From: a virus
Lineage: Duplodnaviria > Caudoviricetes
IMG/VR virus record: IMGVR_UViG_3300035419_000202
Coordinates: 1 to 64,000 of that record
DNA length: 64,000 bases
Strand: one strand, 5' to 3'
Shown here: positions 25,231 to 61,700 of the stretch, piece after piece
Layout: each line of letters starts with the position of its first letter
Position numbering within the stretch: position 1 is the stretch's first letter
The notes under the pieces: generated by a model
What the model saw: only the letters and a program-made list of their open reading frames with translations
Databases searched by the model: none
Told to the model about the DNA's origin: nothing
Position numbers and translations under genes: made by a program

Positions 25231-25578
25231 ATGGACGAAAAACTAGCAAAAGCACTTGAAGCAAGCAATCTGCTTGACACAATAAACCAACAAAAAAAGA
25301 TACTACAGCAGCAATATGATGCTGATCTAATTCATTATGAAAACGGGTGTCAATTTACATCCAGCAAAGAACTAATCAGTTTTTGTCAAAGTTTAACATC
25401 TCTCGAACAAGATCAAATTGTTCTTATAGATGACAATGGACTTCCGTCTTTAATAAAAGACTTATCTGCATTTACAAAAAACTTAGTAAACACATATGCA
25501 ACAGCATCCAACAAATACTTTAATGAATACAACAAATTAAAAAAACAACGTTCTGTTGAAGGTATTTTTAATGACTAA
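25231..25578 (+). CDS. Hypothetical protein, 115 aa (first gene of the enzyme island)
   Basis: GGAG SD, downstream of the consensus promoter, overlaps next gene by 8 nt. Confidence 0.75.
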   Translation: MDEKLAKALEASNLLDTINQQKKILQQQYDADLIHYENGCQFTSSKELISFCQSLTSLEQDQIVLIDDNGLPSLIKDLSAFTKNLVNTYATASNKYFNEYNKLKKQRSVEGIFND

Positions 25579-26401
25579 AGGTATTCTTGTTTTTGCACAC
25601 AACAATGCTGAAATTGATTATGTAAAACAAGCGGCATTTCTTGCCGGTAGAGCAAAACAATATCTTAACTTACCAGTTAGTATTGTAACTGACGAACAAA
25701 GCATAGGTGATAGATATAAAGATTGGTTTGATAAAATTATTATCAATGATATATCTCAGTCGTCAACTAAAAAACAATATTACAATGGTGCAAAAACTCA
25801 CAGTGTTTTAGAATTTAAAAATGATAATCGTTGCCTAGCATATGATCTTAGTCCGTATGACGAAACAATAATGTTAGATAGTGATTATGTTATAGCAGAT
25901 GATATATTTAAAAACTGTTTTGATAGTGCATATGATTTTTTACTCTACAAAGATGCTATAGATATTTGTAGTCACAGAGAAACAAAAGAATTTACACATA
26001 TTAGCGAAACAAGTGTGGACTTTTATTGGGCAACGTGTGTGTTTTTTAGAAAAACAAAATTAAACAAATGCTTCTTTGAATTAATACAGCATATACAAGA
26101 ATATTATCAGCACTATAGAAGTGTTTACAATATACAGTCAACAACATATCGTAATGATTTTGCATTCAGTATTGCAATTCATATAATGAATGGATTTAAA
26201 AAAGGGGACTTTGCAAAAAGAATGCCTGGTAAGTTATTTTATACAGCAGATAGAGATATATTACACTCCATAGACGGAGATAAGTTTATCTTTCTCTTAC
26301 AACGTACAGGCTCACTAGACAATTTTAACCCTTGTAAGTTTCAAGGCAACAGTGTGCATGTAATGAATAAGTACACGTTGGAGGATAATTTAAGTGCCTA
26401 A
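25571..26401 (+). CDS. GT-A fold glycosyltransferase (GT8/GT71-like)
   Basis: DxD motif in SPYDETIMLDSDY; likely start ATG 25571 (GAAGG upstream, ATGACTAA overlap); paralog of next gene. Confidence 0.7.
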   Translation: MTKGILVFAHNNAEIDYVKQAAFLAGRAKQYLNLPVSIVTDEQSIGDRYKDWFDKIIINDISQSSTKKQYYNGAKTHSVLEFKNDNRCLAYDLSPYDETIMLDSDYVIADDIFKNCFDSAYDFLLYKDAIDICSHRETKEFTHISETSVDFYWATCVFFRKTKLNKCFFELIQHIQEYYQHYRSVYNIQSTTYRNDFAFSIAIHIMNGFKKGDFAKRMPGKLFYTADRDILHSIDGDKFIFLLQRTGSLDNFNPCKFQGNSVHVMNKYTLEDNLSA

Positions 26402-27230
26402 TTTTATACTAGTTGCTCAGAACACTCTAGAAGTAGATTATGTAAAACAAGCGTGTGCCCTTGCAATGAGCATACATGCAACTACACCTAATAGCAAAAT
26501 TAGCATACTTACTGATGACGATGTACCTGTAAAGTACAAAAAATTGTTTGATAATATAATTGAAATACCATGGGGTGATCTAGCAAACAAATATGATTGG
26601 AAAATACACAATAGATGGAAGACATATTTTGTTTCACCATACGAAGACGCAATAGTGTTAGACACAGATATGCTTGTACTTGAAGATATTACATCTTGGT
26701 ATGAATATCTACAACAGCATGATGTGTTTTTAACGTCTACTGTTTATGATTACAGAGGCAATAAAATTACAGATACCTTTTATAGGAAAAATTTTGTAAA
26801 GCATAATTTGCCTAACACATATATGGGACTACATTACTTTAAGAAAAGTGATTTTGCACTAGAATTTTATACATGGTTAGATACTATTACAAACAATTGG
26901 AAAGAATTTTATAAACTAGGCGGCGAAAAACCAATACAAAACTTTGCAAGCATGGATCTTACAGCGGCGATGACTGTAGATATACTTGATTGCAAATCAA
27001 AAGTTACTAACGAAAAAGTAACTGTGCCTAGTTTTACTCATATGAAAGCCAACATACAGGGTTGGGAAGAGCTTAGAGAGAGTTGGCAGACTAAAGTTGG
27101 TACTTACTTTACTGACGAAGGTGAGTTGTATATTGGACAATATAAACAAAGCGGAATATTTCATTACACAGAAGATGATTTTTTAACTGATGATATCATT
27201 CAAGTGTTAGAAAAAAGGATAGACTTATGA
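26394..27230 (+). CDS. GT-A fold glycosyltransferase (GT8/GT71-like)
   Basis: SPYEDAIVLDTDML DxD motif; DYVKQA motif shared with upstream paralog; GTG start, GGAGG upstream. Confidence 0.7.
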   Translation: MPNFILVAQNTLEVDYVKQACALAMSIHATTPNSKISILTDDDVPVKYKKLFDNIIEIPWGDLANKYDWKIHNRWKTYFVSPYEDAIVLDTDMLVLEDITSWYEYLQQHDVFLTSTVYDYRGNKITDTFYRKNFVKHNLPNTYMGLHYFKKSDFALEFYTWLDTITNNWKEFYKLGGEKPIQNFASMDLTAAMTVDILDCKSKVTNEKVTVPSFTHMKANIQGWEELRESWQTKVGTYFTDEGELYIGQYKQSGIFHYTEDDFLTDDIIQVLEKRIDL

Positions 27231-27802
27231 TTGTTTTAGAAACACCTACATTTGAGATAATATACAAAGTATATTTTGATAAACAAACAGGCAATATTAA
27301 GTCTATTTCAAATGTAGAACAAGATATAGAAGACTTTTTTGTAGCAGATATCGAAGATGTTCGTCCTTTTTTAAAGGGAATTAAAGATATTACAAAACAT
27401 AAAGTTATGTATGATGTAAAAACATCAGCATATGTAATAGTTGATAAGTTTAAAAAGATAGAGTCAGATGTAAATGACAACGTATACAAAATCTTACCTC
27501 AAGATAATGCACAGGTAATTGTGTCTTATAACAAATCTAAAAATGTTTGGAATGTGTCTTTATCAGACAAAGCAATTAACGAATTATCTTCTAAAAAAGA
27601 GCGTATCGATCAACTGTTAAAGTTTAGTATCACCCAAAAGAATAACCCCAATATTTTGCATGAGTATTTTACCACAACTGTAAAAAAGTTGTTGGATAAT
27701 CCCCAGTCATTTGACAGCCAGAGTCGGTATGATTTTGACAAATTTAGTGTATATACTAATAGGAAGTTCCAAAAGTATTCGTGCGAGGTAGTTAATGAAT
27801 AA
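27227..27802 (+). CDS. Hypothetical protein, 191 aa
   Basis: ATGA overlap upstream, 8-nt overlap downstream; no motif recognised. Confidence 0.7.
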   Translation: MIVLETPTFEIIYKVYFDKQTGNIKSISNVEQDIEDFFVADIEDVRPFLKGIKDITKHKVMYDVKTSAYVIVDKFKKIESDVNDNVYKILPQDNAQVIVSYNKSKNVWNVSLSDKAINELSSKKERIDQLLKFSITQKNNPNILHEYFTTTVKKLLDNPQSFDSQSRYDFDKFSVYTNRKFQKYSCEVVNE

Positions 27803-28685
27803 AATTAAAATCATTGATCAGGATATTATCTTTTTATCCTACGATGAACCCAATGCTGAAAAAAACTATGCCGATTTATGTAACAAGTTGCCTTGGGCAA
27901 AGCGTGTACACGGTGTAGATGGGTCAGATGCTGCACATAAAGCATGTGCAGACCTAAGTGAAACAGAATATTTTGTTACTGTTGATGGCGATAACATAAT
28001 TGACACTGAATTCCTGCAACAAGAAATTGATATTGAAAAATTAGGAGTCACACCTGACCACGTTTTTAGTTGGTGCGGCAATGTTCATGTAAATGGACTA
28101 ATGTACGGTAATGGTGGACTAAAGTTATGGACACGTAAGTTTGTTCATAACATGAAAACACATGAAAACAGCGATGCTAATGATACAGCAGGCTTAGTAG
28201 AATTCTGTTTTGATGAAAAATATTACCAATTCAACGACAACTACAGTACAAGTTACACAAACGCTACTCCGTTTCAAGCATGGAGAGCAGGTTTTCGTGA
28301 AGGTGTTAAAATGAGCCTAAATGAAGGTGCAAAACATGTTGATGTAAAAAACATTTGGTGGCAAAATTTAGACAGATTGCGTATTTGGTGTAGTATTGGT
28401 GCTGATGTAGAAAATGGTAACTGGAGTATGCTTGGTGCAAGGATGGGTTGCTATATGACTATGTGTACAGATTGGGATTATACAAATGTACGTGATTTTA
28501 AATACCTAACTAATTACTGGAAAGATGAAAAAGTTGCTGACTTAGATGTTAGTTCTGAGTTGTTTAGGTACGGCAATCTTATACGGTCAGAACTAAATTT
28601 AGAAATTGCTGACATAGACGCACTAGGAAGTAAATTTTTCAAAAGTGTATATCATAATACTCCAAGGATTATTAAAAAGAGATGA
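27795..28685 (+). CDS. GT-A (GT2-like) glycosyltransferase
   Basis: DIIFLSYDEPNA...YFVTVDGDN...YGNGGLKLW...AWRAGFREG; same motifs as the C-terminal domain of 35810..37489. Confidence 0.7.
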   Translation: MNKIKIIDQDIIFLSYDEPNAEKNYADLCNKLPWAKRVHGVDGSDAAHKACADLSETEYFVTVDGDNIIDTEFLQQEIDIEKLGVTPDHVFSWCGNVHVNGLMYGNGGLKLWTRKFVHNMKTHENSDANDTAGLVEFCFDEKYYQFNDNYSTSYTNATPFQAWRAGFREGVKMSLNEGAKHVDVKNIWWQNLDRLRIWCSIGADVENGNWSMLGARMGCYMTMCTDWDYTNVRDFKYLTNYWKDEKVADLDVSSELFRYGNLIRSELNLEIADIDALGSKFFKSVYHNTPRIIKKR

Positions 28686-30058
28686 ACACTGAATTAATTA
28701 GGATTAAGGAGATAATGCCAGGGCTCGAAAGAGAAACATCGCCTACTTTTTGTTTGGCTAAATGGCATCATGTAACAATCTACTTACAAACTGGTGAAAC
28801 ACATAGTTGTTATCATCCTGCTCCACACAAGATTCCGTTAGAAGGGCTGGAGCAAAATCCTAGTCAACTACATAACACTCCACAAAAAAAGCAAGAAAGA
28901 CTTGCTATGCTTAACGGGCAGAAACCAAGTGGATGTCAATATTGCTGGAACATAGAATGTATGGGCAAAGACTATGTTAGTGACAGACATATAAAAACAA
29001 CTAGCATTTATACTCCTGAACGCATTGAAGAAATAAAAAATAATCCTTGGGATTACGATATAAACCCTGAATATATTGAAGTTAACTTTAGTAATGAATG
29101 TAACTTTAAATGCGGCTATTGTCATCCTAAATTTAGTAGTAGATACTACAGCGAAATAAAACAAAACGGTCCATATAGTAACAGTACAGAACATCGTAAT
29201 GACATTGATTGGTTTGAATTGTATGAAGAAGATACTAACCCTTATGTAGACGCATGGTGGAAATGGTGGCCTGAAGTAAGCAAGACACTAAACATTTTGC
29301 GTGTAACTGGCGGCGAGCCTTTGATGCATAAAAGCACATGGCGCCTGTTTGACGAACTAGAACAAAATCCTAAACCTCATTTAAATATTGAACTTAATAG
29401 TAATATGGGTGTTAAGCCTGCAATGGTATATAGGTTAGTGGAACGTGTAAAAGATCTAAAAGAAAAAGGTTGCATCAATAGTTTTAAATTATACACAAGT
29501 ATCGACACTTGGGGTAAACGTGCAGAATACACACGTACAGGACTAGACGTTGAACTATGGGAACGTAACTTAGATTACTATCTTACAGCAACAGGTTGGC
29601 CTGTAACATTTATGGTTACATTTAACTTATTTGTAGTTACAAGTTTTGATAGTTTGTTAGAAAAAATATTAGAATGGCGTAAAAAGTATAACACAGATGA
29701 AAATGAAACTCAGTGGCAACGTGTAAGATTTGATACACCGTATTTAAAAGAGCCACTACAATTTGATATGAATATTTTACCCAAAGACGAGTTTTTACCT
29801 TACATGGAAAAACATCTTAAATTTATACAAGATAATACTGATGACAAAGACCGAACAAAATTTAGTTCTTTAGAGTATGAAAGATTTAGGCGTGTAATAG
29901 ACTACATGAAAAATACAGAATATGACCAAGATAAAATTATAAACGGTATGCGTAACTTCTATTCGTGGTTTTCAGAATATGACCGAAGAAGAAAAACTAA
30001 TTTAGTAGAAACATTTCCTGAGTTAGAAAAATTTTATAAGGATTGTAGTAATGTCTAA
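28682..30058 (+). CDS. Radical SAM enzyme with N-terminal twitch-like Cys region
   Basis: CNFKCGYC (CxxxCxxC), TGGEP; N-terminal CLAKW...HSCYH...C..CW. Confidence 0.9.
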   Translation: MNTELIRIKEIMPGLERETSPTFCLAKWHHVTIYLQTGETHSCYHPAPHKIPLEGLEQNPSQLHNTPQKKQERLAMLNGQKPSGCQYCWNIECMGKDYVSDRHIKTTSIYTPERIEEIKNNPWDYDINPEYIEVNFSNECNFKCGYCHPKFSSRYYSEIKQNGPYSNSTEHRNDIDWFELYEEDTNPYVDAWWKWWPEVSKTLNILRVTGGEPLMHKSTWRLFDELEQNPKPHLNIELNSNMGVKPAMVYRLVERVKDLKEKGCINSFKLYTSIDTWGKRAEYTRTGLDVELWERNLDYYLTATGWPVTFMVTFNLFVVTSFDSLLEKILEWRKKYNTDENETQWQRVRFDTPYLKEPLQFDMNILPKDEFLPYMEKHLKFIQDNTDDKDRTKFSSLEYERFRRVIDYMKNTEYDQDKIINGMRNFYSWFSEYDRRRKTNLVETFPELEKFYKDCSNV

Positions 30059-31325
30059 AACTTTAAGTTTTGCATACAAATGGTGCGGACCTAAATGGCC
30101 AATAACTAACAATAGAGTGCCTACACTAGCAGACATAAATCATGCTATGAATGAAGGACACATAGATGATGATGTACAAGCGCCAGTAGTGTTTCAGTCA
30201 TTTGAAAACAAAGAAATTATTTCTGCATTTGAGATTCCGCAAGACAAAAAGTATTTTTACGAATTAAATTTTACATCGTATTATTATAGAGATTGGACAA
30301 AACTTTTTAGTACTACTGATGGACCATTTGTTAATAATCCTCCTACTTCTACAGTTAGAGATCAAATACAGAATGGTAATGGATACGTACTTGTTACTAT
30401 TCCATTTGAAGGTTGGGCAACGCCTAAACATTGGGAAGTAATGACACGATTTTTTAATCATTATGAAATACCTTTAGACAAAGTTGTTTATTTTACTAAT
30501 TGTGCTAACGGCCAAGAGTTATATAATAAATGGGCAAATGGCACAGTAGGTCCTAAAATAAATGTAGAGTATTTCCCTACATTTAAAGTACATAGAACAA
30601 ACGTAGAGCAAACACTTCTCAAAGAAGAACCTTATAAAGTGGGACCAAGAGAAAAAGACTTCTTGTGTTTTCAACGTAGATACAGCGATCATAGACTTTC
30701 TTTTTTTATTAAAATGTTTAAAAGAAACTTACTTGATAAATTTTATATGAGTATGGATAGTAAACAACCAGAGTCAGGCCGATCATTTGAAAGTAATGTT
30801 GATTACCTTATAAAACGTTATCCTAATTTAGGTATAGCCCAAGAAGATATTGCACCTAGTAAAAGCAAACTACCGTTAGTACTAGATAATCCAAACTTTA
30901 ACAGTTATCCTATGGAGGCAACTGAAGAGTCGATAGAACATTTTTTCAAAAACAGCCTAATAAATATTATTAGTGAAACTTTTTTCTTTACTGATGAAAT
31001 ACACATTACAGAAAAAACTTATAAGCCTATTGCATATAAACAACCATTTATAATGATGGGTGCAAAAGGAAGTTTACAACACATAAAAAACATGGGATTT
31101 AAAACATTTGACCAGTGGTGGTCAGAAGATTATGATAATATTGCTGATCCTGTAGAACGTATAAACAGGATTTGTGACGTAGTACATATAATATCAGGTT
31201 GGTCTGATCTAGTAAAATTACAGTTTACAAAAGAAGTAGCAGAGATAGTTGAATATAATTTTAATCTTTTAAAAACAATACCTAATACTGAATTAGATTT
31301 AATAACAGAAAAATATGGAAACTAA
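30051..31325 (+). CDS. Putative GT-B glycosyltransferase (GT10/fucosyltransferase-like ITEK motif)
   Basis: IISETFF...ITEKTYKPIAYKQPFI.MG...GFKTFD.WWSEDYD; two paralogs nearby. Confidence 0.6.
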   Translation: MSKTLSFAYKWCGPKWPITNNRVPTLADINHAMNEGHIDDDVQAPVVFQSFENKEIISAFEIPQDKKYFYELNFTSYYYRDWTKLFSTTDGPFVNNPPTSTVRDQIQNGNGYVLVTIPFEGWATPKHWEVMTRFFNHYEIPLDKVVYFTNCANGQELYNKWANGTVGPKINVEYFPTFKVHRTNVEQTLLKEEPYKVGPREKDFLCFQRRYSDHRLSFFIKMFKRNLLDKFYMSMDSKQPESGRSFESNVDYLIKRYPNLGIAQEDIAPSKSKLPLVLDNPNFNSYPMEATEESIEHFFKNSLINIISETFFFTDEIHITEKTYKPIAYKQPFIMMGAKGSLQHIKNMGFKTFDQWWSEDYDNIADPVERINRICDVVHIISGWSDLVKLQFTKEVAEIVEYNFNLLKTIPNTELDLITEKYGN

Positions 31326-32295
31326 AATGAAAAAGAAAATACTAGTATGTGGAGCAGGCGGCTTCATAGGACATCACCTAGTTAATAAACTAGTTGAACA
31401 AGGACATTATGTAATAGGTGCAGATATAAAACAACCTGCTTTTGAACCTACAAAGGCACAAGAATTTTTTCAAGTAGATTTACGTAATCCAGACTTTGTT
31501 GCTGGTTGTGTAAAAACTGACCTAGATGAAGTGTACCAACTTGCGGCAGATATGGGCGGAACAGGATATATTGGCATTGGTGATCATGACAGTGATATTA
31601 TGCATAACAGTGCGTTAATAAATTTAAATGTATTGCATGAAGCAACTAAAAAAGGTATTAAAAAAATACTTTACACAAGTAGTGCATGTGTATATCCTGA
31701 ACGTAATCAGTTAGATCCTGACAATCCTTTTTGCGAAGAAAGTAGTGCGTATCCAGCAGAGCCTGATACAGAATACGGATGGGAAAAATTGTTTAGTGAA
31801 AGACTGTATCTAACACACAAGAAAAACTATGACATTGATGCAAAAGTTGTAAGACTACATAATGTATTTGGTCCACTTGGAAGTTGGGAAGATGGTAAAG
31901 AAAAAGCACCTGCGGCACTATGTCGTAAAGTTGCTGAAAGCGACGGTACTGTAGATATATGGGGACCAGGAAATCAAACTAGAAGTTTCTTGTATATAGA
32001 AGAATGTATTACAGGCTTACAAAAAATTATGGCAAGTAATATTGATCAACCAGTAAACCTTGGTAGCGAAAGAATGATTTCTATCAATGATCTAGCACAA
32101 CTTATAGGTCAAATTGCTGGTAAGAATACTTTAGAAATTAACAATGTAGATGGTCCAATTGGAGTGATGGGTAGAACCAGTCATAACAATCTTATTGAAG
32201 AATTACTTGGCTGGCGACCCGGCGAAGATTTAGAGTATGGACTTAAACATACCTATGCATGGATAAAGGATAAAGTTGATGAGCGTACACAGTAA
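31315..32295 (+). CDS. GDP-mannose 3,5-epimerase-like extended SDR
   Basis: GAGGFIG; LAADMGGTGYI; SSACVYPE; YGWEK (YxxxK); HNVFGP...EKAPAALCRK; QTRSFLYI - all match recalled GME family motifs. Confidence 0.85.
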   Translation: METKMKKKILVCGAGGFIGHHLVNKLVEQGHYVIGADIKQPAFEPTKAQEFFQVDLRNPDFVAGCVKTDLDEVYQLAADMGGTGYIGIGDHDSDIMHNSALINLNVLHEATKKGIKKILYTSSACVYPERNQLDPDNPFCEESSAYPAEPDTEYGWEKLFSERLYLTHKKNYDIDAKVVRLHNVFGPLGSWEDGKEKAPAALCRKVAESDGTVDIWGPGNQTRSFLYIEECITGLQKIMASNIDQPVNLGSERMISINDLAQLIGQIAGKNTLEINNVDGPIGVMGRTSHNNLIEELLGWRPGEDLEYGLKHTYAWIKDKVDERTQ

Positions 32296-33394: not shown

Positions 33395-34067
33395 TGAAAT
33401 TTATCAACACTTTAACAGTTTAGATATTACACCAAAAAAAGTTAGCAGCGATCCTACAGATATCTGGATTGTTGATAATTTTTTGCCTCAGAACATATAC
33501 GAAGCAGTAGTTAAACAGATTACTGATATTCCTGATGCACAATGGAGTACATTTGCAAATGATTCTAGTAGTAGATCAGAATGCAGAAACCCTGTAAATG
33601 CACCACTACTAGAAACATTACAAAACACTTTTAATTCAAGTAAAACTATAAACTGGTTACAAGAACAAATTGGTATTACTGGACTTGTAGCAGATCCACA
33701 TTTACGTGGCGGAGGGCTATGTAAAGTACACAACGGTTACAAATTAGATCTACATACAGATTTTAATTGGAACGACCAAATTAAACTTAATAGAAAAGTT
33801 AATTTAATACTTTACTTAAATGAATGCTGGGATGAATCTTGGGGCGGAGATTTAGAATTCTGGGACAACGAAAAAACAAAATGTATGCATAGGTTAACAC
33901 CTAAGCCTAATCGACTTGCATTTTGGATATACGATACAGATCTTGTACATGGATTTCCTAACCAATTACAAACGCCTGATGATACGTCAAGAGATAATTT
34001 AATATTATTTTATTACACTAGCAATGGCACATGGGAAAAGGAACCAAGAAGATCTCAATTTATGTAG
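33387..34067 (+). CDS. Fe(II)/2-oxoglutarate dioxygenase (prolyl-4-hydroxylase-like, 2OG-FeII_Oxy_3 type)
   Basis: LDLHTDFN (HxD), RKVNLILYLN..W...WGGDLEFW, VHG, R.NLILFYY. Confidence 0.85.
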   Translation: MHNEIYQHFNSLDITPKKVSSDPTDIWIVDNFLPQNIYEAVVKQITDIPDAQWSTFANDSSSRSECRNPVNAPLLETLQNTFNSSKTINWLQEQIGITGLVADPHLRGGGLCKVHNGYKLDLHTDFNWNDQIKLNRKVNLILYLNECWDESWGGDLEFWDNEKTKCMHRLTPKPNRLAFWIYDTDLVHGFPNQLQTPDDTSRDNLILFYYTSNGTWEKEPRRSQFM

Positions 34068-34074
34068 AGGATCT

Positions 34075-35789: not shown

Positions 35790-35803
35790 AAAAGTAGTAT
35801 AAT
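35775..35803 (+). promoter_or_regulatory. Internal sigma70-type promoter TTGACT-N17-TATAAT
   Basis: TTGACT 35775-35780, TATAAT 35798-35803, directly before ATG 35810 (near-leaderless). Confidence 0.75.
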
Positions 35804-35809
35804 AACAAG

Positions 35810-47923: not shown

Positions 47924-47951
47924 GACTAAACACACTCCTTAAAAACTAGCA

Positions 47952-47963: not shown

Positions 47964-47991
47964 ACACTACAGGGTAAAGAAAAAAGTAAAC

Positions 47992-48693: not shown

Positions 48694-48694
48694 A

Positions 48695-50164: not shown

Positions 50165-50873
50165 AGACTACGATCCTATTAATCACGGCTTAACTTACGA
50201 TTTCTTATATAACAATAACGATTGGGATATAATTGAACTTAACTATAATGTAGATGTTGAAAGTCTAAAAGCATGGTGGACTGACGTTAAAGAAAACTTT
50301 GATCACATGTTGTTTAACTTTAACAAGATGTCTGAAAAACTTAACTTAGAAAAAAGTAAAGAAATGGTAGAGCAAGGGTTTTGCGGTTACTATTGCGGAC
50401 CAATTGATGGTGTAACCCTAGCATGGCCTATAGAACGTTATGAAGCACTACCGCCTCCAGCACAATGTAATGCTGAAATGTATCCTGAAGTAGATTACGA
50501 TAACTTTATTAACGATGCAAAAATTATGCCTAAATTACACTTTGGTTATTTTAAACAGTTAGTAGAAGAATTAGGGTCAGATGCTTTTAGACAAGCAATC
50601 GTTACTAGACATCATCCAGGTATGTACATACGTCAACACATAGATAGTAAAGTACTTAAATTACATATTCCTATAGAAAGCAACAAAAACAGTTATTTCC
50701 ATTTTGGTGAAAACAAAGAACGCTCTTATCATATGAAAGAAGGTAAAGCATATATTCTTAACACTGGCGATTGGCACGGAACTACTAACGATAGTGACGA
50801 CTATAGATCTCATATTATTACAAGAGTAACTGAAGGCCATATCTTAAATGTAATAGGTATAACAAATGGATAA
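50124..50873 (+). CDS. Asp/Asn beta-hydroxylase-like Fe(II)/2OG dioxygenase
   Basis: PGMYIRQHID...LHIPI...WHGTTN...RSHII. Confidence 0.85.
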   Translation: MENTQHIQDLRIIKDYDPINHGLTYDFLYNNNDWDIIELNYNVDVESLKAWWTDVKENFDHMLFNFNKMSEKLNLEKSKEMVEQGFCGYYCGPIDGVTLAWPIERYEALPPPAQCNAEMYPEVDYDNFINDAKIMPKLHFGYFKQLVEELGSDAFRQAIVTRHHPGMYIRQHIDSKVLKLHIPIESNKNSYFHFGENKERSYHMKEGKAYILNTGDWHGTTNDSDDYRSHIITRVTEGHILNVIGITNG

Positions 50874-51609
50874 AGTTCTGCAACCTTCTCAAGTTGACTT
50901 GTCAGTTTTAGAAAGTTTAGAATGGGACATTATAATATTAGATAAAAAAATAGATGTTGAAAATTTACAACATTGGTATAATATTGTTATATCTAATTTA
51001 GACTACTTAAAATTTAATTTTCAAACATGCTCTGAGTACATAAAAGAATCTGTTAATAATAAATTTACTACTGATACAAATGATTATGAATGGGAACGTA
51101 ACAAAACCTACGAAGCATTAATTAATTCGTGGACATTAACTTGGCCAGCTCACAGAGATGTACCACTTCCGCCTCCTTGGGCTGCTGACATAGACTTTTT
51201 TACAGAATTAAAAAGTTACTTTGACAATAACGGTAATGTTATAAAGGACTTTGATTATAAAGATAATATATATCTTAGTCAATATAATTTTGGAGAATGG
51301 AAATCTATAGTAGAAGAAGTAGGCAACTATATTTACAATCCGCGTATTACACAACACCTGCCTGAACACATACTTCATCCGCACACAGATGGATACTGTG
51401 CTAGACTACACATTCCTATGACATATGATAATAGCAAATTTTACTGGGGAGAAAAATGGAACAGAGAATATAATTTTGAACCAGGAAATATTTACATTAT
51501 AAATTCTAGAGTTACGCACTCTACTACAAACTTTAGTCCTACATCAAGGGCAAATGTAATTGCTGATATACATAATAATAAATTTATGGATTTAGTAAAT
51601 TGGAAATGA
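50866..51609 (+). CDS. Asp/Asn beta-hydroxylase-like Fe(II)/2OG dioxygenase
   Basis: LHPHTD...RLHIPM...THSTTN...RANVI. Confidence 0.85.
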   Translation: MDKVLQPSQVDLSVLESLEWDIIILDKKIDVENLQHWYNIVISNLDYLKFNFQTCSEYIKESVNNKFTTDTNDYEWERNKTYEALINSWTLTWPAHRDVPLPPPWAADIDFFTELKSYFDNNGNVIKDFDYKDNIYLSQYNFGEWKSIVEEVGNYIYNPRITQHLPEHILHPHTDGYCARLHIPMTYDNSKFYWGEKWNREYNFEPGNIYIINSRVTHSTTNFSPTSRANVIADIHNNKFMDLVNWK

Positions 51610-52253
51610 AACGATATATAGAAGAACATCAAACAGTTGATTTAGGTTTTGACGTTAAACGTATATTTTGTGTTGATGTAAAAAAGTTACAGGACTGGTA
51701 TAATGATCTACAAGGAAATTACAAAGATTGGAAATTTGTTGTAGGAGAAAATCATCATGTGTGGCAGTTTCCAATTAGTGACCCTACTGGAGAGACTGGA
51801 CATATTATACCTGACGAAACTGGTTACTATACGTTATGCTGGAATAGTGACGAAGAAGGTCCTAAACCTTTTGAGCAAGGATGTGCAAAGCCAGAGTATA
51901 GAGACAATGACAACGATGAATTGAATCCTAGAAAATGTTTTACAGGATACGGATTAGACGTTGTAAAAAGTCTACCTTTTCGTAGTAAAAAATGGTTAGT
52001 AACTGAGCATGTAACTGGAACTAAATTGATCACACATCAAGATAGTCCTGATAAAATTAGAGTACATATTCCTATACACACTAACAAAGATAGTAATTGG
52101 ATTATAAACGGTAAAGAATATCATATGGAACCAGGTTGGGCATATCTTGTAAACACAACACTTCCTCATAGTGTTGAAAACAAAGGCACAACAGACAGAG
52201 TACACCTTTATGGTAAAGTGTGGACTGAGGACGTAAAAGCATGGTTAATGTAA
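51600..52253 (+). CDS. Asp/Asn beta-hydroxylase-like Fe(II)/2OG dioxygenase
   Basis: LITHQD...RVHIPI...PHSVEN...RVHLY. Exact start (51600 or 51606) uncertain. Confidence 0.85.
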   Translation: MEMKRYIEEHQTVDLGFDVKRIFCVDVKKLQDWYNDLQGNYKDWKFVVGENHHVWQFPISDPTGETGHIIPDETGYYTLCWNSDEEGPKPFEQGCAKPEYRDNDNDELNPRKCFTGYGLDVVKSLPFRSKKWLVTEHVTGTKLITHQDSPDKIRVHIPIHTNKDSNWIINGKEYHMEPGWAYLVNTTLPHSVENKGTTDRVHLYGKVWTEDVKAWLM

Positions 52254-52666
52254 AAACATATGCAATGAAAGATATGCACCCTATACCTAACAACGAATAT
52301 CTTATTGGTATACACAGTAATGGTAATTGGATACATTCTGAGCCTGTTATGGCAGATGCAGATAATGTTTTAAATTTAAAATTTGAGGATGTTGAAAAGA
52401 CAGGTTTAAAAGCAATCAAGTGGTACAATAACACACAACGAATAATACATGCTACAGCATGTAGCGATAAACAAGCAAAACAAATTATATATTTTGTACG
52501 CAAGATTCCTAAAAATGCAACACTACATGTATATTGTGCAAAAGGACAATCAAGAAGTGTTGCTGTTGCCAACTACGTTAAAAAGCATTATAATAACGAA
52601 ACAATAGATGACAGTGGTCATAACAAACATGTTTATAGTCTATTAGAAAGGTATCATGATGTTTGA
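52241..52666 (+). CDS. Cys-based (PTP/dual-specificity-like) phosphatase
   Basis: CX5R P-loop LHVYCAKGQSRS; upstream LKFEDV general-acid-like Asp. Confidence 0.75.
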   Translation: MVNVKTYAMKDMHPIPNNEYLIGIHSNGNWIHSEPVMADADNVLNLKFEDVEKTGLKAIKWYNNTQRIIHATACSDKQAKQIIYFVRKIPKNATLHVYCAKGQSRSVAVANYVKKHYNNETIDDSGHNKHVYSLLERYHDV

Positions 52667-53831
52667 TTTTGATATTAAAGAATTACCTAACTTTAAATTT
52701 TCGTTGCAAGAACTAAAAGACTATTATGCTAAAGTATCTCAGTATGACAATTTAAAGTGGCAACCAGATAGTACAAATACATTAGATCACAAAGTAAATG
52801 ATGTATACAGTTGGGCTATACAAAGTAATTTAAAGGATGCTACAAAGCCTTGTCCACCGTATGACATTAAACATGATACTGAAGTATTAGGCACGTTTGA
52901 TAACCCTACAGAGCTTGTATTTGGTTTTGGCAAGTATATTGTAGATGCAATACCCGATGTTAGGCAAACAGTTATAAGTGCCCATCCACCTAATACAGTT
53001 ATACAACAACATATAGATAATACTGAGTTTGTAAAAGTACATATACCTATACAGACAAATGATCAAAGTTATTTTGTATTTGGCGATTCAAAGTATAATT
53101 TACAAGAGGGTAAAGCATATCTTATTAATACTACTAATCAACATGGAACAATTAACCAAGGCGATACAGACAGAATACATTTAATATTTAAAATACCTAT
53201 CGACAATGTAGATGAACTACTAAACACAGATTGGATATTAGATCCAGCCCAAATAAACTTTGATTGTAAAAAAATAGAAAATGTAAAATTTAATTTTGAT
53301 GAACTTAAAGAATACTATAATGACCTTGTAGATAATTTTGACTACTTGAAATGGACAATGCCTGAAGTTTCAGGAACTAATCTTGAAGGATTATATGGTT
53401 ACGCAATATTAACTAATTGTGAAAACGTAGACGAACGTCCATTACCTCCGGGTATGCGTAAAGACAAAAAAGCATTTGATCCTATTATAAAACCTACTAA
53501 GATGCTCAAAGGGTTTGCTAAAAAACTATATGATCAAATTCCTTATATAGAAGAATTAGTAATTACTGGACATCCTCAAAATTCAGGAATACCCCCGCAT
53601 GCAGATAAAGATGAACATGTAAGAGTACATATTCCGTTGTATGCTAATAACGATTCGCATTTTATTATTAACGAACACCCGTATGTATTAGAACCTAATA
53701 ATGTTTACATTGTAAATACAAAACGCATACACACTACAATTAACAAAGGCTCTACAGATAGAATCCATTTACATTTTAAAATTCCCATAGGAAAAATAAA
53801 TATTTTTTTAAGGACACAAATAAACGTATGA
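52656..53831 (+). CDS. Tandem two-domain Asp/Asn beta-hydroxylase-like dioxygenase
   Basis: Two complete motif sets: IQQHID..VHIPI..QHGTIN..RIHLIF and IPPHAD..VHIPL..IHTTIN..RIHLHF. Confidence 0.85.
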   Translation: MMFDFDIKELPNFKFSLQELKDYYAKVSQYDNLKWQPDSTNTLDHKVNDVYSWAIQSNLKDATKPCPPYDIKHDTEVLGTFDNPTELVFGFGKYIVDAIPDVRQTVISAHPPNTVIQQHIDNTEFVKVHIPIQTNDQSYFVFGDSKYNLQEGKAYLINTTNQHGTINQGDTDRIHLIFKIPIDNVDELLNTDWILDPAQINFDCKKIENVKFNFDELKEYYNDLVDNFDYLKWTMPEVSGTNLEGLYGYAILTNCENVDERPLPPGMRKDKKAFDPIIKPTKMLKGFAKKLYDQIPYIEELVITGHPQNSGIPPHADKDEHVRVHIPLYANNDSHFIINEHPYVLEPNNVYIVNTKRIHTTINKGSTDRIHLHFKIPIGKINIFLRTQINV

Positions 53832-54934
53832 ATATAATTATTGTAGGCGGCGGAACAGCAGGTTGGATGACAGCCTCATACCTTTCTAAAAAGACTGACT
53901 GGGATATTACAGTTATCCAAAGTCAAGATATACCTATAATAGGTGTAGGTGAAAGTACACTGCCTAGTATGTATGACTTTATACATGATTGCGGATTAAC
54001 TGAGCAAGACTTATTTGATAATTGCAATGCGGTTCGTAAGTATACAATTAAACATAAAAACTGGCACGGCGAAAGTTGGTTCCATCATTTTTGTTTTGAT
54101 GAAACAGAACACGACGAACAAATGCGTTGGATGGAAAATTACGAGTTGCCAAATAAAAAATGGCGTCATGCATATCATATAGATGCAAATAAATTTGGTA
54201 TTATGTTGCGTGATAAAGTAGCATTGCCAAATGGTGTTAAATTAGAAACACGTACATTAGATAATATTGATGATTTACAAGCAGACTTGATTATTAATTG
54301 TACAGGATTTAATAAATTATTTCCTCAAAGAGAAATGGTTAGTACACGTCTTAAAAATAATTGTGCTGTAGTAGCACCTAGTTATGATAAAGAGTTAAAA
54401 TACTACACAGAAACAACTGCTATGAGTAACGGGTGGATGTGGAATATTTATTTACAAAATCGTATTGGTAATGGTTATGTGTTTAGTACAGAACATCAAA
54501 CAGTTGACGATGCTAAACGCGAGTTTATCGAAACATGTCCTTATAATCTTGAACTAGATAAAATGCGAGTATTACACTGGGAAAGTAAATATTGCCCAAC
54601 ACCGTATCAAGATAACATACTAAACATAGGGCTGAGTGCTGGATTTATTGAGCCTTTAGAAGCACAAGCAATTTGGCTAATACAATATCAGATTGAAATG
54701 CTAGTTAAACTATATGGTAAACAAAAAGTTTACAATAGACAATATGTTAAGATTGTAAAACATATTGAAGATTTTCTTGCATTGCATTATGAAGCAACAA
54801 GTAAGAATACACCATACTGGCAAAATGAAGTAAAAGAAATTGAAATTAAAAAGAAACCGTTTACTATTTTTGACGAATATAGTTTTAGGTGTTTAGCGAA
54901 CGGTTACGCTCTTCCATATACTTTGAAACATTAA
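53828..54934 (+). CDS. Flavin-dependent (tryptophan halogenase-family) halogenase, short form
   Basis: GGGTAGW, IGVGEST, candidate catalytic Lys in AVRKYTI, WMWNI (WxWxI), GFIEPLEA. Confidence 0.85.
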   Translation: MNIIIVGGGTAGWMTASYLSKKTDWDITVIQSQDIPIIGVGESTLPSMYDFIHDCGLTEQDLFDNCNAVRKYTIKHKNWHGESWFHHFCFDETEHDEQMRWMENYELPNKKWRHAYHIDANKFGIMLRDKVALPNGVKLETRTLDNIDDLQADLIINCTGFNKLFPQREMVSTRLKNNCAVVAPSYDKELKYYTETTAMSNGWMWNIYLQNRIGNGYVFSTEHQTVDDAKREFIETCPYNLELDKMRVLHWESKYCPTPYQDNILNIGLSAGFIEPLEAQAIWLIQYQIEMLVKLYGKQKVYNRQYVKIVKHIEDFLALHYEATSKNTPYWQNEVKEIEIKKKPFTIFDEYSFRCLANGYALPYTLKH

Positions 54935-55430
54935 TACGCCACAAGTTCTGCGGAACATTGTATAACTCCATCCTACGATCTAAAGTCCAAATTCCTGTTT
55001 TAGCAAGCATTGGCATAATAGTATTGTTTATACGTTGGCTTTTGCCGCCGTCGTTGTTAATGTTAGTACTAATATAAAGTTCTGCGTTAGGATTTTTAGT
55101 TGCCCAATCAATCTGTATAGGCAATAGATAACTTAACTGTATTCCAGTTTTAAATATATTTCTACCAGTGCCTAACGTATAGCCTGGTAATTGTGCGCCT
55201 CTAAATAATAGTCTATAAGCATCAGGACTAACTTCAGGAAGTTTGTGAGCACCAGCAATACTTACAATACGGTCTTGGTCAAATGCTGCACACCAAAACG
55301 GACACCAGTCCCATTTCATTTTTTCTAAAGAAGTATTGTTACTATAAGACTGAGAATTACAGAATATCTCAACAGCACCTCTGTCAGTTTTAGATAATGT
55401 TCTAAACGTCAGTCTTCCAAGTTTTTCCAT
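54885..55430 (-). CDS. GNAT-family acyltransferase-like protein
   Basis: FWCAAFDQDRIVSIAG...YRLLFRGAQLPGY..G pattern and LYISTN; low-level similarity. Confidence 0.5.
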   Translation of the reverse strand: MEKLGRLTFRTLSKTDRGAVEIFCNSQSYSNNTSLEKMKWDWCPFWCAAFDQDRIVSIAGAHKLPEVSPDAYRLLFRGAQLPGYTLGTGRNIFKTGIQLSYLLPIQIDWATKNPNAELYISTNINNDGGKSQRINNTIMPMLAKTGIWTLDRRMELYNVPQNLWRINVSKYMEERNRSLNT

Positions 55431-56070
55431 TTGCTTCTTTTCTTCTATGTGAGAATGTCATTGTGCTTGTATCAAAAATATCACCTGTAGCTCTACCATT
55501 TATTATTGCTTCACCTAAAGAAGATGTTGCTGTTACAGGGTGAAACATTATATGATCATCTGTTGGTCGATTATGCAAATCAAAACTAGGACTATCATAA
55601 CCTATAAGAATAGGCGGAGGAAACTCAGTCATGCCATACCAGTTTGCTACACACTGTACACCTCTATTTTTAAATGCATTTATAAAGTCTTGATCTATTT
55701 TATTACTACCTGTTACCATGTAACGTACACAACTCATATCTAAGTCTTTAAAGCCTTTTGTACTTTGTAAAAGCTCTAAATGACGCGGTATAAGCGCAAT
55801 ATAAGACGGTTGTAAGCGTTTAAATGCTTGTATGTACGTATATGGTGTAAAGTTGCTACAAACGTACTGTGCGCCGCTTAAAACGCTAGGATACGCTGTT
55901 ATAGTCCAATGTGCAATAGTATTAGCAGGAAACACATCTAATACAACATCCTTGCTGGTTAGTTGTATTTCTTTAGCACTACGTCTAGCACATTCATTAA
56001 TGTATTCCCAAGAGTGTGTTATTTGTTTAGGTTCATCTGTACTACCTGATGTGTAAAGTGTTATACTCAT
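55402..56070 (-). CDS. Minimal AMP-binding (ANL adenylation) enzyme, 222 aa
   Basis: YTSGST..PK (A3 P-loop), NWYGMTE (A5), TGD (A7), R (A8). Confidence 0.8.
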   Translation of the reverse strand: MSITLYTSGSTDEPKQITHSWEYINECARRSAKEIQLTSKDVVLDVFPANTIAHWTITAYPSVLSGAQYVCSNFTPYTYIQAFKRLQPSYIALIPRHLELLQSTKGFKDLDMSCVRYMVTGSNKIDQDFINAFKNRGVQCVANWYGMTEFPPPILIGYDSPSFDLHNRPTDDHIMFHPVTATSSLGEAIINGRATGDIFDTSTMTFSHRRKEANGKTWKTDV

Positions 56071-56882
56071 AGTAGTCTATCCTTTAATATATCTGCTGTA
56101 TGTTTATGTACACCTATACCTGGATGGCCTGATATAGTACCGTTTTGTTTACAAATATCTCTAGCAAATTTTTTATTGTTATCGTCAATACCTAATAGAT
56201 CAATATCAATACGTATAATAGGCAAAGTAGTAGGAAAATAACTAAACATTGTTAATGGTATGTTGTTAGTTTTACAAAATACTTCTAACATGTTTACGTA
56301 TATTTCTGCTTCGTTTTGTAAGAAGTCAGTGCGTTCTAGTAATTCATAAGGTTCTACATAATTGCATTTAGGCCTATGACCGCCAGTAAATGTAAGAGCA
56401 AAATTATCTGTAAGAAATGTATATCCGTGTGCAGGCGGAAATTCAAAACATGCACTTTTTGGAGCACCGTGTAAGTTTACATAATTAAAAAATGATATAA
56501 CTTGTAGTTTAGTGCTGTATGTAGGACCAGCATAACTTAGCATAGGTGTGTCTAGTTCTTTAGACAATATATCAGTGTACCTATCTTTCTCGTCTACACC
56601 AATACCTAAAGTATAACTTGTGCCACTAAAATAAATTAAGTCTTTAGTTAAATCCACTTCATTAGACATACGTAATCCTAAACTGTTAAAGTTGTAATTA
56701 ATCTCTTTGCTATTGTATATCCAACTATTATCTTGATATTTTTTGTTACGCTCGTGTAGTCTTTCGTTATCAGGTCCGTAGTAATTAGAACTTGTATTAG
56801 GAATCATACTGTCGTGTTGATACGGCCAGTCAGTCTTTTTGTAAGGAATACAAGTATTCAATCTTGTTTTAATATTAGTCAT
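56067..56882 (-). CDS. SGNH/GDSL-like hydrolase or acyltransferase
   Basis: FSGTSYTLGIGV (block I-like) and C-terminal GHPG..H (block V-like). Confidence 0.55.
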   Translation of the reverse strand: MTNIKTRLNTCIPYKKTDWPYQHDSMIPNTSSNYYGPDNERLHERNKKYQDNSWIYNSKEINYNFNSLGLRMSNEVDLTKDLIYFSGTSYTLGIGVDEKDRYTDILSKELDTPMLSYAGPTYSTKLQVISFFNYVNLHGAPKSACFEFPPAHGYTFLTDNFALTFTGGHRPKCNYVEPYELLERTDFLQNEAEIYVNMLEVFCKTNNIPLTMFSYFPTTLPIIRIDIDLLGIDDNNKKFARDICKQNGTISGHPGIGVHKHTADILKDRLL

Positions 56883-57645
56883 TGTATGTAATATGAGTTT
56901 TGCTTTTTAATAATCTATCTACAGCATCATTTGATGGATCAGAGTGTAACAATATCCATTCATCATCGCCGTGGTTTACAGGAGCATGTACATTGCTAAC
57001 ATTAACTAGATAAACTTCACCGGGCTTAGGATTATAACTTGCACGTTCGTATTGCCAAGTGTCAGCAGGTGTTTCCCCTAACTGTGAAAAGAAATGCCAT
57101 GATGAATCCTTATTAGTTTCTAAATTAACATGTAACCTAATCATATGCTCTGACATATCTTCACCGTCGTGATCTCGATGAGGACCTATACCTGCTTCAG
57201 TGCCGCAATTCATAGCTCTACCCCAGGTCCATGCATCTTGTCCTAAGGTTTCAACCATATTTTTATATGCACCAAAATAATATTGATCTAAATGATTGTT
57301 CATTCCACTTTCCCAAGTAGAAACTTCTAATTCAGGAAACTTTTCTTTATCACAAAACATTGGTCCTGGTATAGGATCTGTTCTTTGTACAGGCCATTGT
57401 AAAGTCCAATAACCAGCATCCCCTACACAGATGCCGTTCATTCTAGGGTTTTCTAAGAAATGTGATTGGAATAAATCTTTCATAGAAAACAAAAATAGAC
57501 TTTCGGGAGAAGTAGTTTTTACAGTTTCAAACCATTCTAGTAAAGGTTTAGGATCTACAGTAACATTTAACTTTACCATATCCCAGTCTAAGTTTCTTAA
57601 ATCTTCTCTAGTATAGTTTTGTGGATCTGTAATTATTTTGGTCAT
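56875..57645 (-). CDS. Asp/Asn beta-hydroxylase-like Fe(II)/2OG dioxygenase
   Basis: IGPHRD...RLHVNL...VHAPVN. Confidence 0.8.
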   Translation of the reverse strand: MTKIITDPQNYTREDLRNLDWDMVKLNVTVDPKPLLEWFETVKTTSPESLFLFSMKDLFQSHFLENPRMNGICVGDAGYWTLQWPVQRTDPIPGPMFCDKEKFPELEVSTWESGMNNHLDQYYFGAYKNMVETLGQDAWTWGRAMNCGTEAGIGPHRDHDGEDMSEHMIRLHVNLETNKDSSWHFFSQLGETPADTWQYERASYNPKPGEVYLVNVSNVHAPVNHGDDEWILLHSDPSNDAVDRLLKSKTHITYND

Positions 57646-61597: not shown

Positions 61598-61627
61598 GTG
61601 CTATGTCCTTTCTAAGTTTATATATGT

Positions 61628-61695: not shown

Positions 61696-61700
61696 TATTC

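Follow-up and report, generated by a model that had tools for sequence, protein, structure and literature searches.

What would a virus do with an unbroken run of genes for sugar, radical and hydroxylation chemistry placed directly after its fibre genes, and on which molecules would the enzymes act? The question is raised by positions 25231-57645 of a 64,000-nucleotide stretch of a tailed virus (Duplodnaviria; Caudoviricetes). This stretch, referred to here as the window, is the first 64 kb of the 81.6-kb IMG/VR record IMGVR_UViG_3300035419_000202. An initial annotation, made from the letters alone, had described positions 25231-57645, hereafter the island, as a pathway of gene-cluster complexity that builds a decorated glycan or other coat on virion fibres or on the host surface. 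Genes are named g followed by their start coordinate in the window (e.g. g25231).

We found that the island contains 37 open reading frames (ORFs) in ~32 kb, with overlaps at 33 of the 36 junctions, a coding density of ~100%, and a widest gap of 56 bp; the gene count and tight packing of the initial annotation were reproduced. Part 1 (25231-47935) holds every transferase, every sugar-nucleotide enzyme and all six radical S-adenosylmethionine (SAM) genes, and Part 2 (47992-57645) holds an array of Asp/Asn-hydroxylase-type cupins together with a halogenase, a phosphatase-like protein and an adenylation fragment. With a probability of about 0.4, we favor the reading that the island is a two-part enzyme pathway for the cytoplasmic hydroxylation, possibly halogenation, and glycosylation of fibre or other virion proteins, using L-galactose-type sugars and radical-SAM tailoring. 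Part 1 would build and tailor the sugars. The enzymes of Part 2 would act on protein side chains, adding hydroxyl groups and perhaps halogens, and some of these side chains could then serve as anchors for glycans. The acceptor, the order of the steps and each chemical product are inferred.

The island was compared with three long related contigs (G001, G002 and G003; the window's own contig is G000), with 80 IMG/VR loci located through g28682 (69-97% identity) out of 561 matching stretches, and, for the core genes, with 43 loci located through g41293. In G001, G002 and G003 the island is bounded by the same fibre genes on one side and the same VWA/AAA genes on the other, with protein identities to the window of 48-97% in G001, 23-87% in G002 and 27-47% (core genes) in G003. 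Among the 80 loci, g25231 to g28682 directly follow the fibre genes wherever upstream sequence is present. A core consisting of g35810, g38039, g39722, g40701, g41293, g42585, g43238, two beta-propellers, a kinase-like gene, g46889 and g47992 is kept in 43 of 43 loci, and the periphery of the island varies among them. The synteny check that had been proposed was therefore passed, with fibre linkage in every relative examined. The ratio of nonsynonymous to synonymous substitution rates (dN/dS) between G000 and G001 was 0.03-0.23 across the island genes, leaving out one row aligned to the wrong paralogue, which indicates that the island is under purifying selection. Judged by these comparisons, the island is real and conserved, and almost certainly functional. 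The dS values form a mosaic: they exceed 1 for most genes left of ~38 kb and are mostly 0.13-0.7 from 39.7 kb to the island end. This abrupt change indicates a recent recombination of the right-hand part between lineages.

We then analyzed the radical SAM proteins. All six that had been predicted carry an intact CxxxCxxC motif, and two further genes complete the set discussed with them:

28682-30058, plus strand: radical SAM protein with N-terminal twitch (N_Twi 1); NF033640 322 bits, CxxxCxxC at residue 140
38039-39022, plus strand: radical SAM family E, core cassette; Pfam 1.2e-10, 48-49% identical to Bdellovibrionota homologues
39722-40711, plus strand: radical SAM with C-terminal SPASM domain, core cassette; Pfam Radical_SAM and SPASM
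40701-41300, plus strand: Rossmann-like protein of 199 aa, core cassette; GGWNG, DIDP and NTSCEH invariant (alignment A5)
41293-42588, plus strand: radical SAM with N-terminal twitch (N_Twi 2), core cassette; NF033640 410 bits
42585-43241, plus strand: cupin dioxygenase (HxD...H), core cassette; paralogue of the AspH-type genes
43238-44161, plus strand: radical SAM family E, paralogue of g38039; Pfam 1.2e-11
46889-47935, minus strand: radical SAM with N-terminal twitch (N_Twi 3); NF033640 219 bits

The three N_Twi proteins exceed the curated cut-off of NCBIfam NF033640 (N_Twi_rSAM), which is 170 bits as a whole-protein score. Alignment A3 has invariant cysteines C6, C25, C82, C85 and C138/C142/C145, with the auxiliary cluster N-terminal to the core. 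The N_Twi profile returned generic radical SAM similarity only in the PDB (SkfB, 1.5e-7), and the peptide-maturase equivalogs of NCBIfam all scored far below cut-off, including those for the SPASM-bearing g39722. The cupin g42585 is the most conserved island protein, with 84-99% identity across most relatives; in the most diverged group it retains ~68-70%, against 50-64% for the neighbouring genes.

In cells, counterparts of the core cassette were found almost only in Bdellovibrionota (best 78 genome loci), including megabase contigs and complete chromosomes, at 45-50% identity for the N_Twi (g41293, 45-50%) and family E radical SAM proteins. The cassette is multiplied in these bacteria (199 N_Twi copies over the 78 loci), and g40701 is part of a larger fused protein there. 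The bacterial cassettes are interleaved with GT2 glycosyltransferases (two families, in 13 and 12 loci) and carbamoyltransferases (7 loci). Short-chain dehydrogenases/reductases (SDRs) and AspH-type proteins are found among them too, and isolated loci add a fatty-acid desaturase or amine oxidases; multi-pass membrane proteins are encoded nearby. Matches to the polysaccharide flippase family PF01943 were set aside, since differing contig numbers kept them from being placed on these loci. A carbamoyltransferase is also present in the island of G003, and two are in the fibre-adjacent island of cyanophage S-SSM7. Since GT2 and carbamoyltransferase genes mark a context of glycan or glycoconjugate tailoring, we read the radical SAM proteins as belonging to a sugar-centred pathway and not to a classical pathway for peptides that are made on the ribosome and modified after translation. 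In the island, the cassette (three N_Twi proteins, one SPASM protein, two other radical SAM proteins, the Rossmann-like protein and the cupin) would carry out further radical chemistry. No description of the island, of NF033640 or of Bdellovibrio radical SAM clusters was found in the literature searched. A bolder proposal, which we hold tentatively and on the doubtful side, is that the core cassette (three N_Twi, SPASM, family E, Rossmann-like, cupin and GT-A proteins) is an undescribed glycan- or glycoprotein-tailoring radical-SAM pathway common to a cosmopolitan marine jumbo-phage lineage and Bdellovibrionota. Joined to the hydroxylase/halogenase array and the L-galactose module, it would yield a new type of heavily modified fibre, in effect a coat of protein and glycan that the virus encodes and that involves radical chemistry.

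Dense clusters of up to ~6 to 10 radical SAM genes (N-terminal-twitch, SPASM and a third type) were also seen in Bdellovibrionota chromosomes and metagenome-assembled genomes. Given the GC content and the shared genes, one may ask whether marine Bdellovibrionota serve as hosts of this phage lineage or have donated genes to it. Additional N_Twi homologues (40-47%) were seen on contigs binned as Planctomycetota, Crocinitomicaceae, Neisseriaceae, Gammaproteobacteria MED685, Acidimicrobiaceae and Chloroflexota. On the three of these six contigs whose gene order was inspected (L087, L093 and L095), the radical SAM genes lie in phage-like arrays that are nearly all on the same strand, and the six contigs may be misbinned phage DNA.

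The initial annotation had listed seven proteins resembling glycosyltransferases and two nucleotide-sugar genes. Because the transferases were not detected by Pfam, they were tested by predicted fold, which backs five of the seven (families B and C); support for the other two (family A) is weak and consists of a sub-threshold Mannosyl_trans3 match. The genes are as follows:

25556-26401, plus strand: family A, possible GT-A-like transferase; sub-threshold Mannosyl_trans3 (E 0.0034), conserved in relatives
26394-27230, plus strand: family A paralogue, 36% identical to g25556 over 113 aa
27795-28685, plus strand: family B glycosyltransferase, GT-A fold with DxD; core cassette
30051-31325, plus strand: family C glycosyltransferase, GT-B fold
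31315-32295, plus strand: GDP-mannose 3,5-epimerase (GME), which makes GDP-L-galactose/L-gulose
32276-33394, plus strand: family C paralogue, GT-B by paralogy (alignment A1); 39% identical to the g30051 C-terminus
34659-35789, plus strand: family C paralogue, GT-B by paralogy (alignment A1)
35810-37489, plus strand: 559-aa protein, an N-terminal half without assignment plus a family B GT-A domain
39019-39732, plus strand: truncated UDP-glucose/GDP-mannose dehydrogenase, 237 aa; PF00984 7.1e-16

For the second family A protein, g26394, family searches gave just a weak match to the unnamed phrog_1903 (E 0.0017). In family B, D64 and D66 are invariant (alignment A2), and the AlphaFold2 (AF2) model has a predicted local distance difference test score (pLDDT) of 80. 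Its best Foldseek matches are all GT-A: the glycocin/peptide S-glycosyltransferases SunS and ThuS, the teichoic-acid transferases RmlT and TarP, and PBCV-1 A64R. Homologues of g27795 occur in the Bdellovibrionota cassettes. Residues 331-530 of g35810, a gene conserved in most relatives, are 31% identical to g27795.

For the family C protein g30051 (AF2 pLDDT 91), all listed Foldseek matches and nearly all listed VIA matches are GT-B. The GT10 fucosyltransferases (5zoi, Z 10.3; 8d0o, Z 10.0) score level with other GT-B folds at Z ~10, the T4 alpha- and beta-glucosyltransferases among them; Pfam gave no match to PF00852 (GT10) even at E 10, and the ESM Atlas leads were weak (GT10 0.79 for family C, GT2 0.86). 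PDB profile and sequence searches with families C and B returned nothing significant. The two nucleotide-sugar genes stood as predicted. The g31315 protein matched plant GME (2c59) at 4.6e-87, with the next family at 5e-26 and Pfam Epimerase at 2.6e-41. In g39019, which has a dN/dS of 0.17, the C-terminal domain was not detected. The epimerase would supply GDP-L-galactose or GDP-L-gulose, and three GT-B and up to four GT-A-like transferases would attach the sugars. The GME/GT-B module (30051-35789) is an accessory insertion in one close clade. The fibre genes g21221 and g24709 are confined to the same clade as this module; their co-occurrence was not used, since it is confounded by relatedness.

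The tie with the T4 enzymes brings in the possibility that the transferases and tailoring enzymes decorate modified phage bases as a protection against host nucleases. A gene for GTP cyclohydrolase I (FolE) lies at 67199-67888 of the same contig (L138 3199-3888), ~3 kb past the window, and the island has early-looking promoters (see below), both of which would suit DNA hypermodification. Against it, no thymidylate-synthase-like protein, dNMP kinase, TET/JBP protein, transglycosylase or DpdA was found among the 37 island proteins, and, as the initial annotation had noted for thymidylate-synthase-like and dNMP-kinase genes, no starter enzyme for base modification was seen in the window. The oxygenases belong to protein/lipid hydroxylase families and not to TET/JBP, and the island is linked to fibre genes and not to replication genes. 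The product of the epimerase is a GDP-L-sugar, and we know of no phage DNA glycosyltransferase that takes such a donor. We consider DNA hypermodification very improbable.

We next turn to the oxygenases. Nine genes of the iron(II)/2-oxoglutarate (Fe/2OG) type had been predicted, and all nine were recovered with an intact HxD/E motif: seven Asp/Asn-hydroxylase-type cupins (eight domains), of which g42585 and g56875 are assigned by paralogy, one PF13640 protein and one PF13759 protein. Besides g42585, these genes and the other assigned genes of Part 2 are:

33387-34067, plus strand: P4H-type 2OG-Fe(II) oxygenase; PF13640 3e-14, weak OGFOD1/P4H matches
37479-38042, plus strand: 2OG-Fe(II) oxygenase, accessory; PF13759 1.4e-13, 32% identical to Syn9 gp48
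47992-48693, plus strand: Asp/Asn beta-hydroxylase-type cupin; PF05118 1.4e-13
50124-52253, plus strand: three Asp/Asn hydroxylase-type cupins (g50124, g50866, g51600); PF05118, paralogy
52241-52666, plus strand: CX5R phosphatase-like protein; HCxxxxxRS by eye, DSPc E 0.039
52656-53831, plus strand: double-domain Asp/Asn hydroxylase-type cupin; PF05118 5.6e-23 in two stretches
53828-54934, plus strand: flavin-dependent tryptophan-halogenase homologue, 368 aa; PF04820 4.5e-72
55402-56070, minus strand: AMP-binding (ANL) central fragment, 222 aa; PF00501 2.3e-19, profile positions 168-330 only
56875-57645, minus strand: cupin, paralogue of the hydroxylase array; blastp 2e-23 to g50124

The P4H-type gene g33387 is accessory, as G001 is without it. 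PF05118 and PF13640 are protein-hydroxylase families. The predicted halogenase was borne out; its best solved relatives are PyrH (3.8e-45) and the cyanophage enzyme VirX1 (4.9e-44), it is ~30% identical to cyanophage halogenases, and it is ~150 aa shorter than its solved relatives. The phosphatase call is weak but reasonable, given the motif and the DSPc score. The adenylation enzyme of the initial annotation proved to be the central fragment listed above.

The island could also make a small molecule or peptide, diffusible or intracellular, such as a glycosylated, hydroxylated and halogenated peptide or a nucleoside-sugar metabolite. VirX1-type viral halogenases act on small aromatic substrates. 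The mix of radical SAM/SPASM proteins, halogenase, ANL fragment, kinase and phosphatase, and many oxygenases recalls a biosynthetic gene cluster; family B is similar to the glycocin transferases SunS and ThuS; and secondary-metabolite synthesis was the function that Iyer et al. (2010) preferred for the ten tandem dioxygenases and two halogenases of the Syn9 array (PMC2938197). On the other hand, no nonribosomal peptide synthetase, polyketide synthase, ATP-grasp enzyme, cyclodipeptide synthase or transporter was seen among the island proteins, no peptide-maturase equivalog reached the NCBIfam cut-off, and the ANL protein is just a 222-aa fragment. No precursor peptide was recognisable among the small ORFs looked at, which did not amount to a systematic short-ORF screen. 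We regard a natural product as distinctly unlikely.

Several lines of evidence point instead to virion proteins as the target. In all relatives examined the island accompanies the fibre module, and an analogous radical SAM cluster occupies the same place in the cultured Sinorhizobium phage Phosso. The 37 island proteins appear soluble: no convincing membrane segment was found among them (two marginal hydrophobic windows lie inside radical SAM proteins), and family searches found no flippase, polymerase or polyprenyl-phosphate transferase. Likewise, no lipopolysaccharide (LPS)-specific or membrane export or assembly protein was matched in Pfam or NCBIfam. The affinities of the AspH and P4H types and of the SunS/ThuS/A64R-like GT-A proteins are protein-directed. 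Halogenase/oxygenase arrays lie right after tail-fibre genes in Syn9 and S-SSM7. Finally, a published proposal (Iyer et al. 2010, PMC2938197) holds that beta-hydroxylases act on tail-collar and collagen-like proteins encoded along with them, and one of the fibre genes upstream of the island, g14715, has a Collar domain.

The promoters, however, complicate this reading. Two sigma70-type promoters serve Part 1:

25176-25204, plus strand: sigma70-consensus promoter TTGACA-17-TATAAT, 12/12 match, in the 51-bp gap before g25231
35775-35803, plus strand: second sigma70-type promoter, 11/12 match, before g35810; kept in G001

The hexamers of the first promoter hold their position in G001, G002 and G003 although the spacers diverge. 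The window has 4 matches to the sigma70 pattern where 0.32 would be expected (4 was reached in 0 of 100 shuffles), and 3 of the 4 matches fall in the window's rare intergenic gaps. Promoters of this type also lie ahead of the AAA/VWA genes and in three more gaps in the DNA-metabolism region past the window. Because Part 1 shares its promoter type with non-structural genes, it is probably co-expressed with them. Early expression of Part 1 would be compatible with enzymes made ahead of their substrates, and equally with a host-directed role. The fourth match (TTGACT-17-TATAAT, 51254-51282, minus strand) is antisense within the cupin gene g50866 and is either a chance match or an antisense promoter.

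A number of observations thus weigh against the modification of virion proteins. The first 19 kb of the island starts at promoters of the type that precedes DNA-metabolism and AAA genes, and one fibre gene, g18673, bears TATAAATA instead. These promoters suggest that the island is expressed earlier than the fibres, and the conserved promoter at the island start argues against simple co-expression with late fibre genes. The fibre linkage itself could reflect a permissive hypervariable site. No EGF-like C-x-D/N-x4-F/Y-x-C motif and no collagen Gly-X-Y run was found in the fibre proteins. Soluble transferases can act on lipid-linked host glycans, and the neighbours of the bacterial cassettes (GT2, desaturase, multi-pass membrane proteins) would suit a surface polysaccharide or a glycolipid no less than a glycoprotein.

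The same observations lead to the alternative that the enzymes remodel the host surface by modifying lipid-linked LPS, capsule or glycolipid intermediates of the host, for example to block superinfection or to reduce the sticking of progeny to debris. The presumably early promoters at 25176 and 35775, conserved in relatives, and the GT2, carbamoyltransferase, desaturase and membrane-protein neighbours of the bacterial cassettes would agree with it. So would PF05118, a family to which the lipid A hydroxylase LpxO also belongs. The literature reads cyanophage glycosyltransferase/epimerase clusters in this way (PMC12801897). Nevertheless, no flippase, polymerase, ligase, polyprenyl-phosphate transferase or convincing membrane protein is found in the island, LPS-specific enzymes (Kds, heptose pathway) were not found, and the linkage to fibre genes is strict over a wide divergence. 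We consider host-surface remodelling unlikely, and retain the modification of virion proteins as the preferred reading.

The TATAAATA motif is depleted in the window (3 copies against 11.6 expected, with at least 3 in all 100 shuffles), which is consistent with a T4-like late-promoter motif avoided elsewhere. One of the 3 copies, at 18629-18636, lies in the gap before g18673. As this is the single intergenic copy, its assignment as a late promoter was not adopted, and no inference rests on the motif.

We then compared the island with known systems. Virus-encoded glycosylation of virions is known for the PBCV-1 capsid glycans, the mimivirus fibril glycans, and the mycobacteriophage capsid and tail, where the enzymes work in the cytoplasm. 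The island resembles these systems in encoding soluble transferases and nucleotide-sugar enzymes, and family B has PBCV-1 A64R among its structural neighbours. To our knowledge, no radical SAM enzyme, hydroxylase array or halogenase is part of any of the three systems. The mycobacteriophage case is mentioned in PMC11256854.

Like Syn9 and S-SSM7, in which the array follows tail-fibre and fibre-assembly genes, the phage has an oxygenase/halogenase array directly after tail-fibre genes; the likeness in position is that of the island as a whole, which follows the fibre genes. It also shares with Syn9 the tandem of distinct Fe/2OG-type oxygenases with a tryptophan-halogenase homologue within the array, and g53828 is 30-32% identical to Syn9 gp41/gp42. 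Unlike in Syn9, the oxygenases are mostly AspH-type cupins, none of which matches the Syn9 region (tblastn, E 0.01); only g37479 matches gp48/gp45. The array is joined here to a 22-kb glycosyltransferase/radical SAM part that Syn9 is without, the phage is not a T4-like cyanophage, and the halogenase is ~150 aa shorter. The large cyanomyoviruses P-SSM2, S-SCSM1 and S-SCSM2R carry glycosyltransferase-rich "LPS/cell-wall modification" clusters, which are functionally untested (PMC12801897). As in those phages, many transferases and nucleotide-sugar epimerases are present, and theirs are sometimes accompanied by radical SAM and halogenase genes elsewhere in the genome. In contrast to their recognisable CAZy families, KdsA/B and heptose or rhamnose pathways, the transferases of the island have diverged beyond the reach of Pfam, the cluster is dominated by six radical SAM enzymes, and LPS-specific enzymes were not found. 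A count of 12 radical SAM genes has also been noted for a marine T4-like genome (PMC5332604).

The Bdellovibrionota clusters share with the island the N_Twi, SPASM, family E, Rossmann-like and family B GT-A proteins, and sometimes the g42585-type cupin and AspH-type proteins. They are chromosomal, they add GT2, carbamoyltransferase, SDR, and amine oxidase or desaturase genes, and they are without fibre genes, a halogenase or the GME/GT-B module. In Phosso (PV764938.1), a radical SAM cluster takes up the corresponding place next to homologous genes for fibres and the giant structural protein; unlike the island, this ~10-kb cluster has no annotated transferases or hydroxylases, and it is not detectably homologous beyond the radical SAM core. 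No comparable island is present at the syntenic position of Atu_ph07. In the cultured Vibrio jumbo phages of the K566 group (~253 kb), a single region (K566 161.5-179 kb) holds about five radical SAM genes distantly similar to the N_Twi type, and the other island families were not found in these phages.

Fibre-adjacent dioxygenase/halogenase arrays, glycosyltransferase-rich cyanomyovirus clusters and a marine phage with many radical SAM genes are therefore already known, and the island is not categorically new. The statement that no characterised phage pathway has this enzyme set is literally true, and it was overstated in view of these precedents (PMC2938197, PMC12801897, PMC5332604). The broader claim of a glycan pathway of gene-cluster complexity holds insofar as conserved, phage-borne, fibre-linked enzymes of glycan building are present; a fibre or the host surface as the acceptor is a proposal. 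We believe that the fusion of both themes in one 32-kb unit of a non-cyanophage jumbo lineage is new, as are the radical-SAM core cassette with its Bdellovibrionota counterparts, the GME/GT-B module, the conserved promoter architecture, and the positional analogue in a cultured phage. If fibre proteins are indeed the target, no virus-encoded system for modifying proteins known from bacteriophages would be as elaborate as the island, and it would bear on how marine phages tune receptor binding or hide their fibres from recognition by hosts or grazers. Relatives of one island gene are encoded on 561 IMG/VR stretches; with a lineage this common, any such chemistry could be widespread in the ocean. 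Whatever the target, the island presents a coherent set of uncharacterised families (N-terminal-twitch radical SAM proteins, Pfam-invisible transferases and a short viral halogenase), ties them to the Bdellovibrionota clusters, and points to the cultured phage Phosso.

The island is flanked by the following genes:

1-14073, plus strand: giant ORF, >4690 aa with the 5' end open; putative virion structural or fibre protein
14095-25179, plus strand: upstream fibre module of seven genes (g14095, g14715, g16802, g18673, g20183, g21221, g24709)
57703-58785, minus strand: downstream fibre-like protein with Mtd_N (PF18454 8.8e-11)
60290-62789, minus strand: VWA/metallopeptidase (DUF2201) and MoxR-type AAA ATPase, the conserved right-hand boundary

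Segments of the giant ORF are homologous to a 4555-aa Phosso protein annotated as "virion structural protein" (PV764938.1, L140 35697-45001), and Pfam gave nothing for it beyond a sub-threshold CBM_5_12. The proteins of the upstream module have paralogous N-termini and match annotated tail fibres; g14715 has a Collar domain (Pfam 1.6e-13), and Pfam matched Gly_rich_2 in the module, in which g21221 is a Gly-rich protein of 1162 aa. Homologues of the module adjoin the giant protein gene in Phosso, and the comparison indicates that a giant-protein/fibre module is common to this soil Sinorhizobium phage and the marine lineage. The g14095 protein is 57% identical to a neighbour of the Phosso giant protein. 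Fibre genes had been placed on both sides of the island. This is solid upstream, and the downstream side has one Mtd_N-bearing protein, with short matches only to structural proteins. The VWA and MoxR boundary proteins are 43-47% identical to PA5oct and Phosso proteins.

The record has a GC content of ~0.34 and a CheckV completeness of 23%, which implies a genome of roughly 350 kb. The phage belongs to an abundant, uncultured marine lineage, for which contigs of 312-379 kb exist. Past the window, it encodes:

L138 4570-5127: phosphoribosyltransferase
L138 11799-12572: second short NDP-sugar epimerase/dehydratase
L138 13493-16165: family B DNA polymerase

The DNA polymerase is 50% identical to that of Phosso, 45% to that of Atu_ph07 and ~42% to those of E. 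coli and Vibrio jumbo phages. For the MoxR-type AAA ATPase, identity is 47% with PA5oct-type proteins and 45% with Phosso. These affinities place the phage with the giant myophages and not with the T4-like cyanophages. A megablast search of 20 kb of the island against isolated phages gave 0 matches.

The remaining island proteins are:

25231-25578, plus strand: conserved 115-aa protein without a family, which opens the island; at this position in nearly all 80 loci
27227-27802, plus strand: 191-aa protein with weak sub-cut-off matches to DUF2316 and Mt_ATP_synt (E ~0.003-0.004)
34024-34659, plus strand: putative class I methyltransferase (unconfirmed); motif by eye, Methyltransf_24 E 0.022
44126-46484, minus strand: two paralogous Kelch-like beta-propellers, g44126 and g45258
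46447-46902, minus strand: small RIO/APH-type kinase-like protein; RIO1 26.2 bits against a cut-off of 22, APH
48695-50164, plus strand: conserved 489-aa protein, dN/dS 0.05
54885-55430, minus strand: 181-aa protein
56067-56882, minus strand: 271-aa protein

The kinase call held, with a score above the RIO1 cut-off; like the propeller calls, it is weak but reasonable. For the two propellers, one has a weak Kelch match (1.4e-4) and the other is assigned by paralogy. The two methyltransferases of the initial annotation were left unconfirmed: both calls rest on motifs, and beyond the marginal g34024 score, g40701 gave insignificant Rossmann-type matches. The labels GNAT (candidate g54885) and SGNH-like (candidate g56067) found no backing, as neither protein matched Pfam, PHROG or the PDB. 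The matches of g27227 were taken as chance, and PHROG gave none. The g48695 protein had 0 matches in Pfam, PHROG and PDB profiles, and for the unassigned proteins in general Pfam at E 10 and the PHROGs gave nothing usable. The ANL ORF lies between the unassigned g54885 and g56067, with overlaps of 29 and 4 bp, and this arrangement is kept in G001 at 94-97%; the segment 54885-56882 could be a split or degenerate ANL enzyme.

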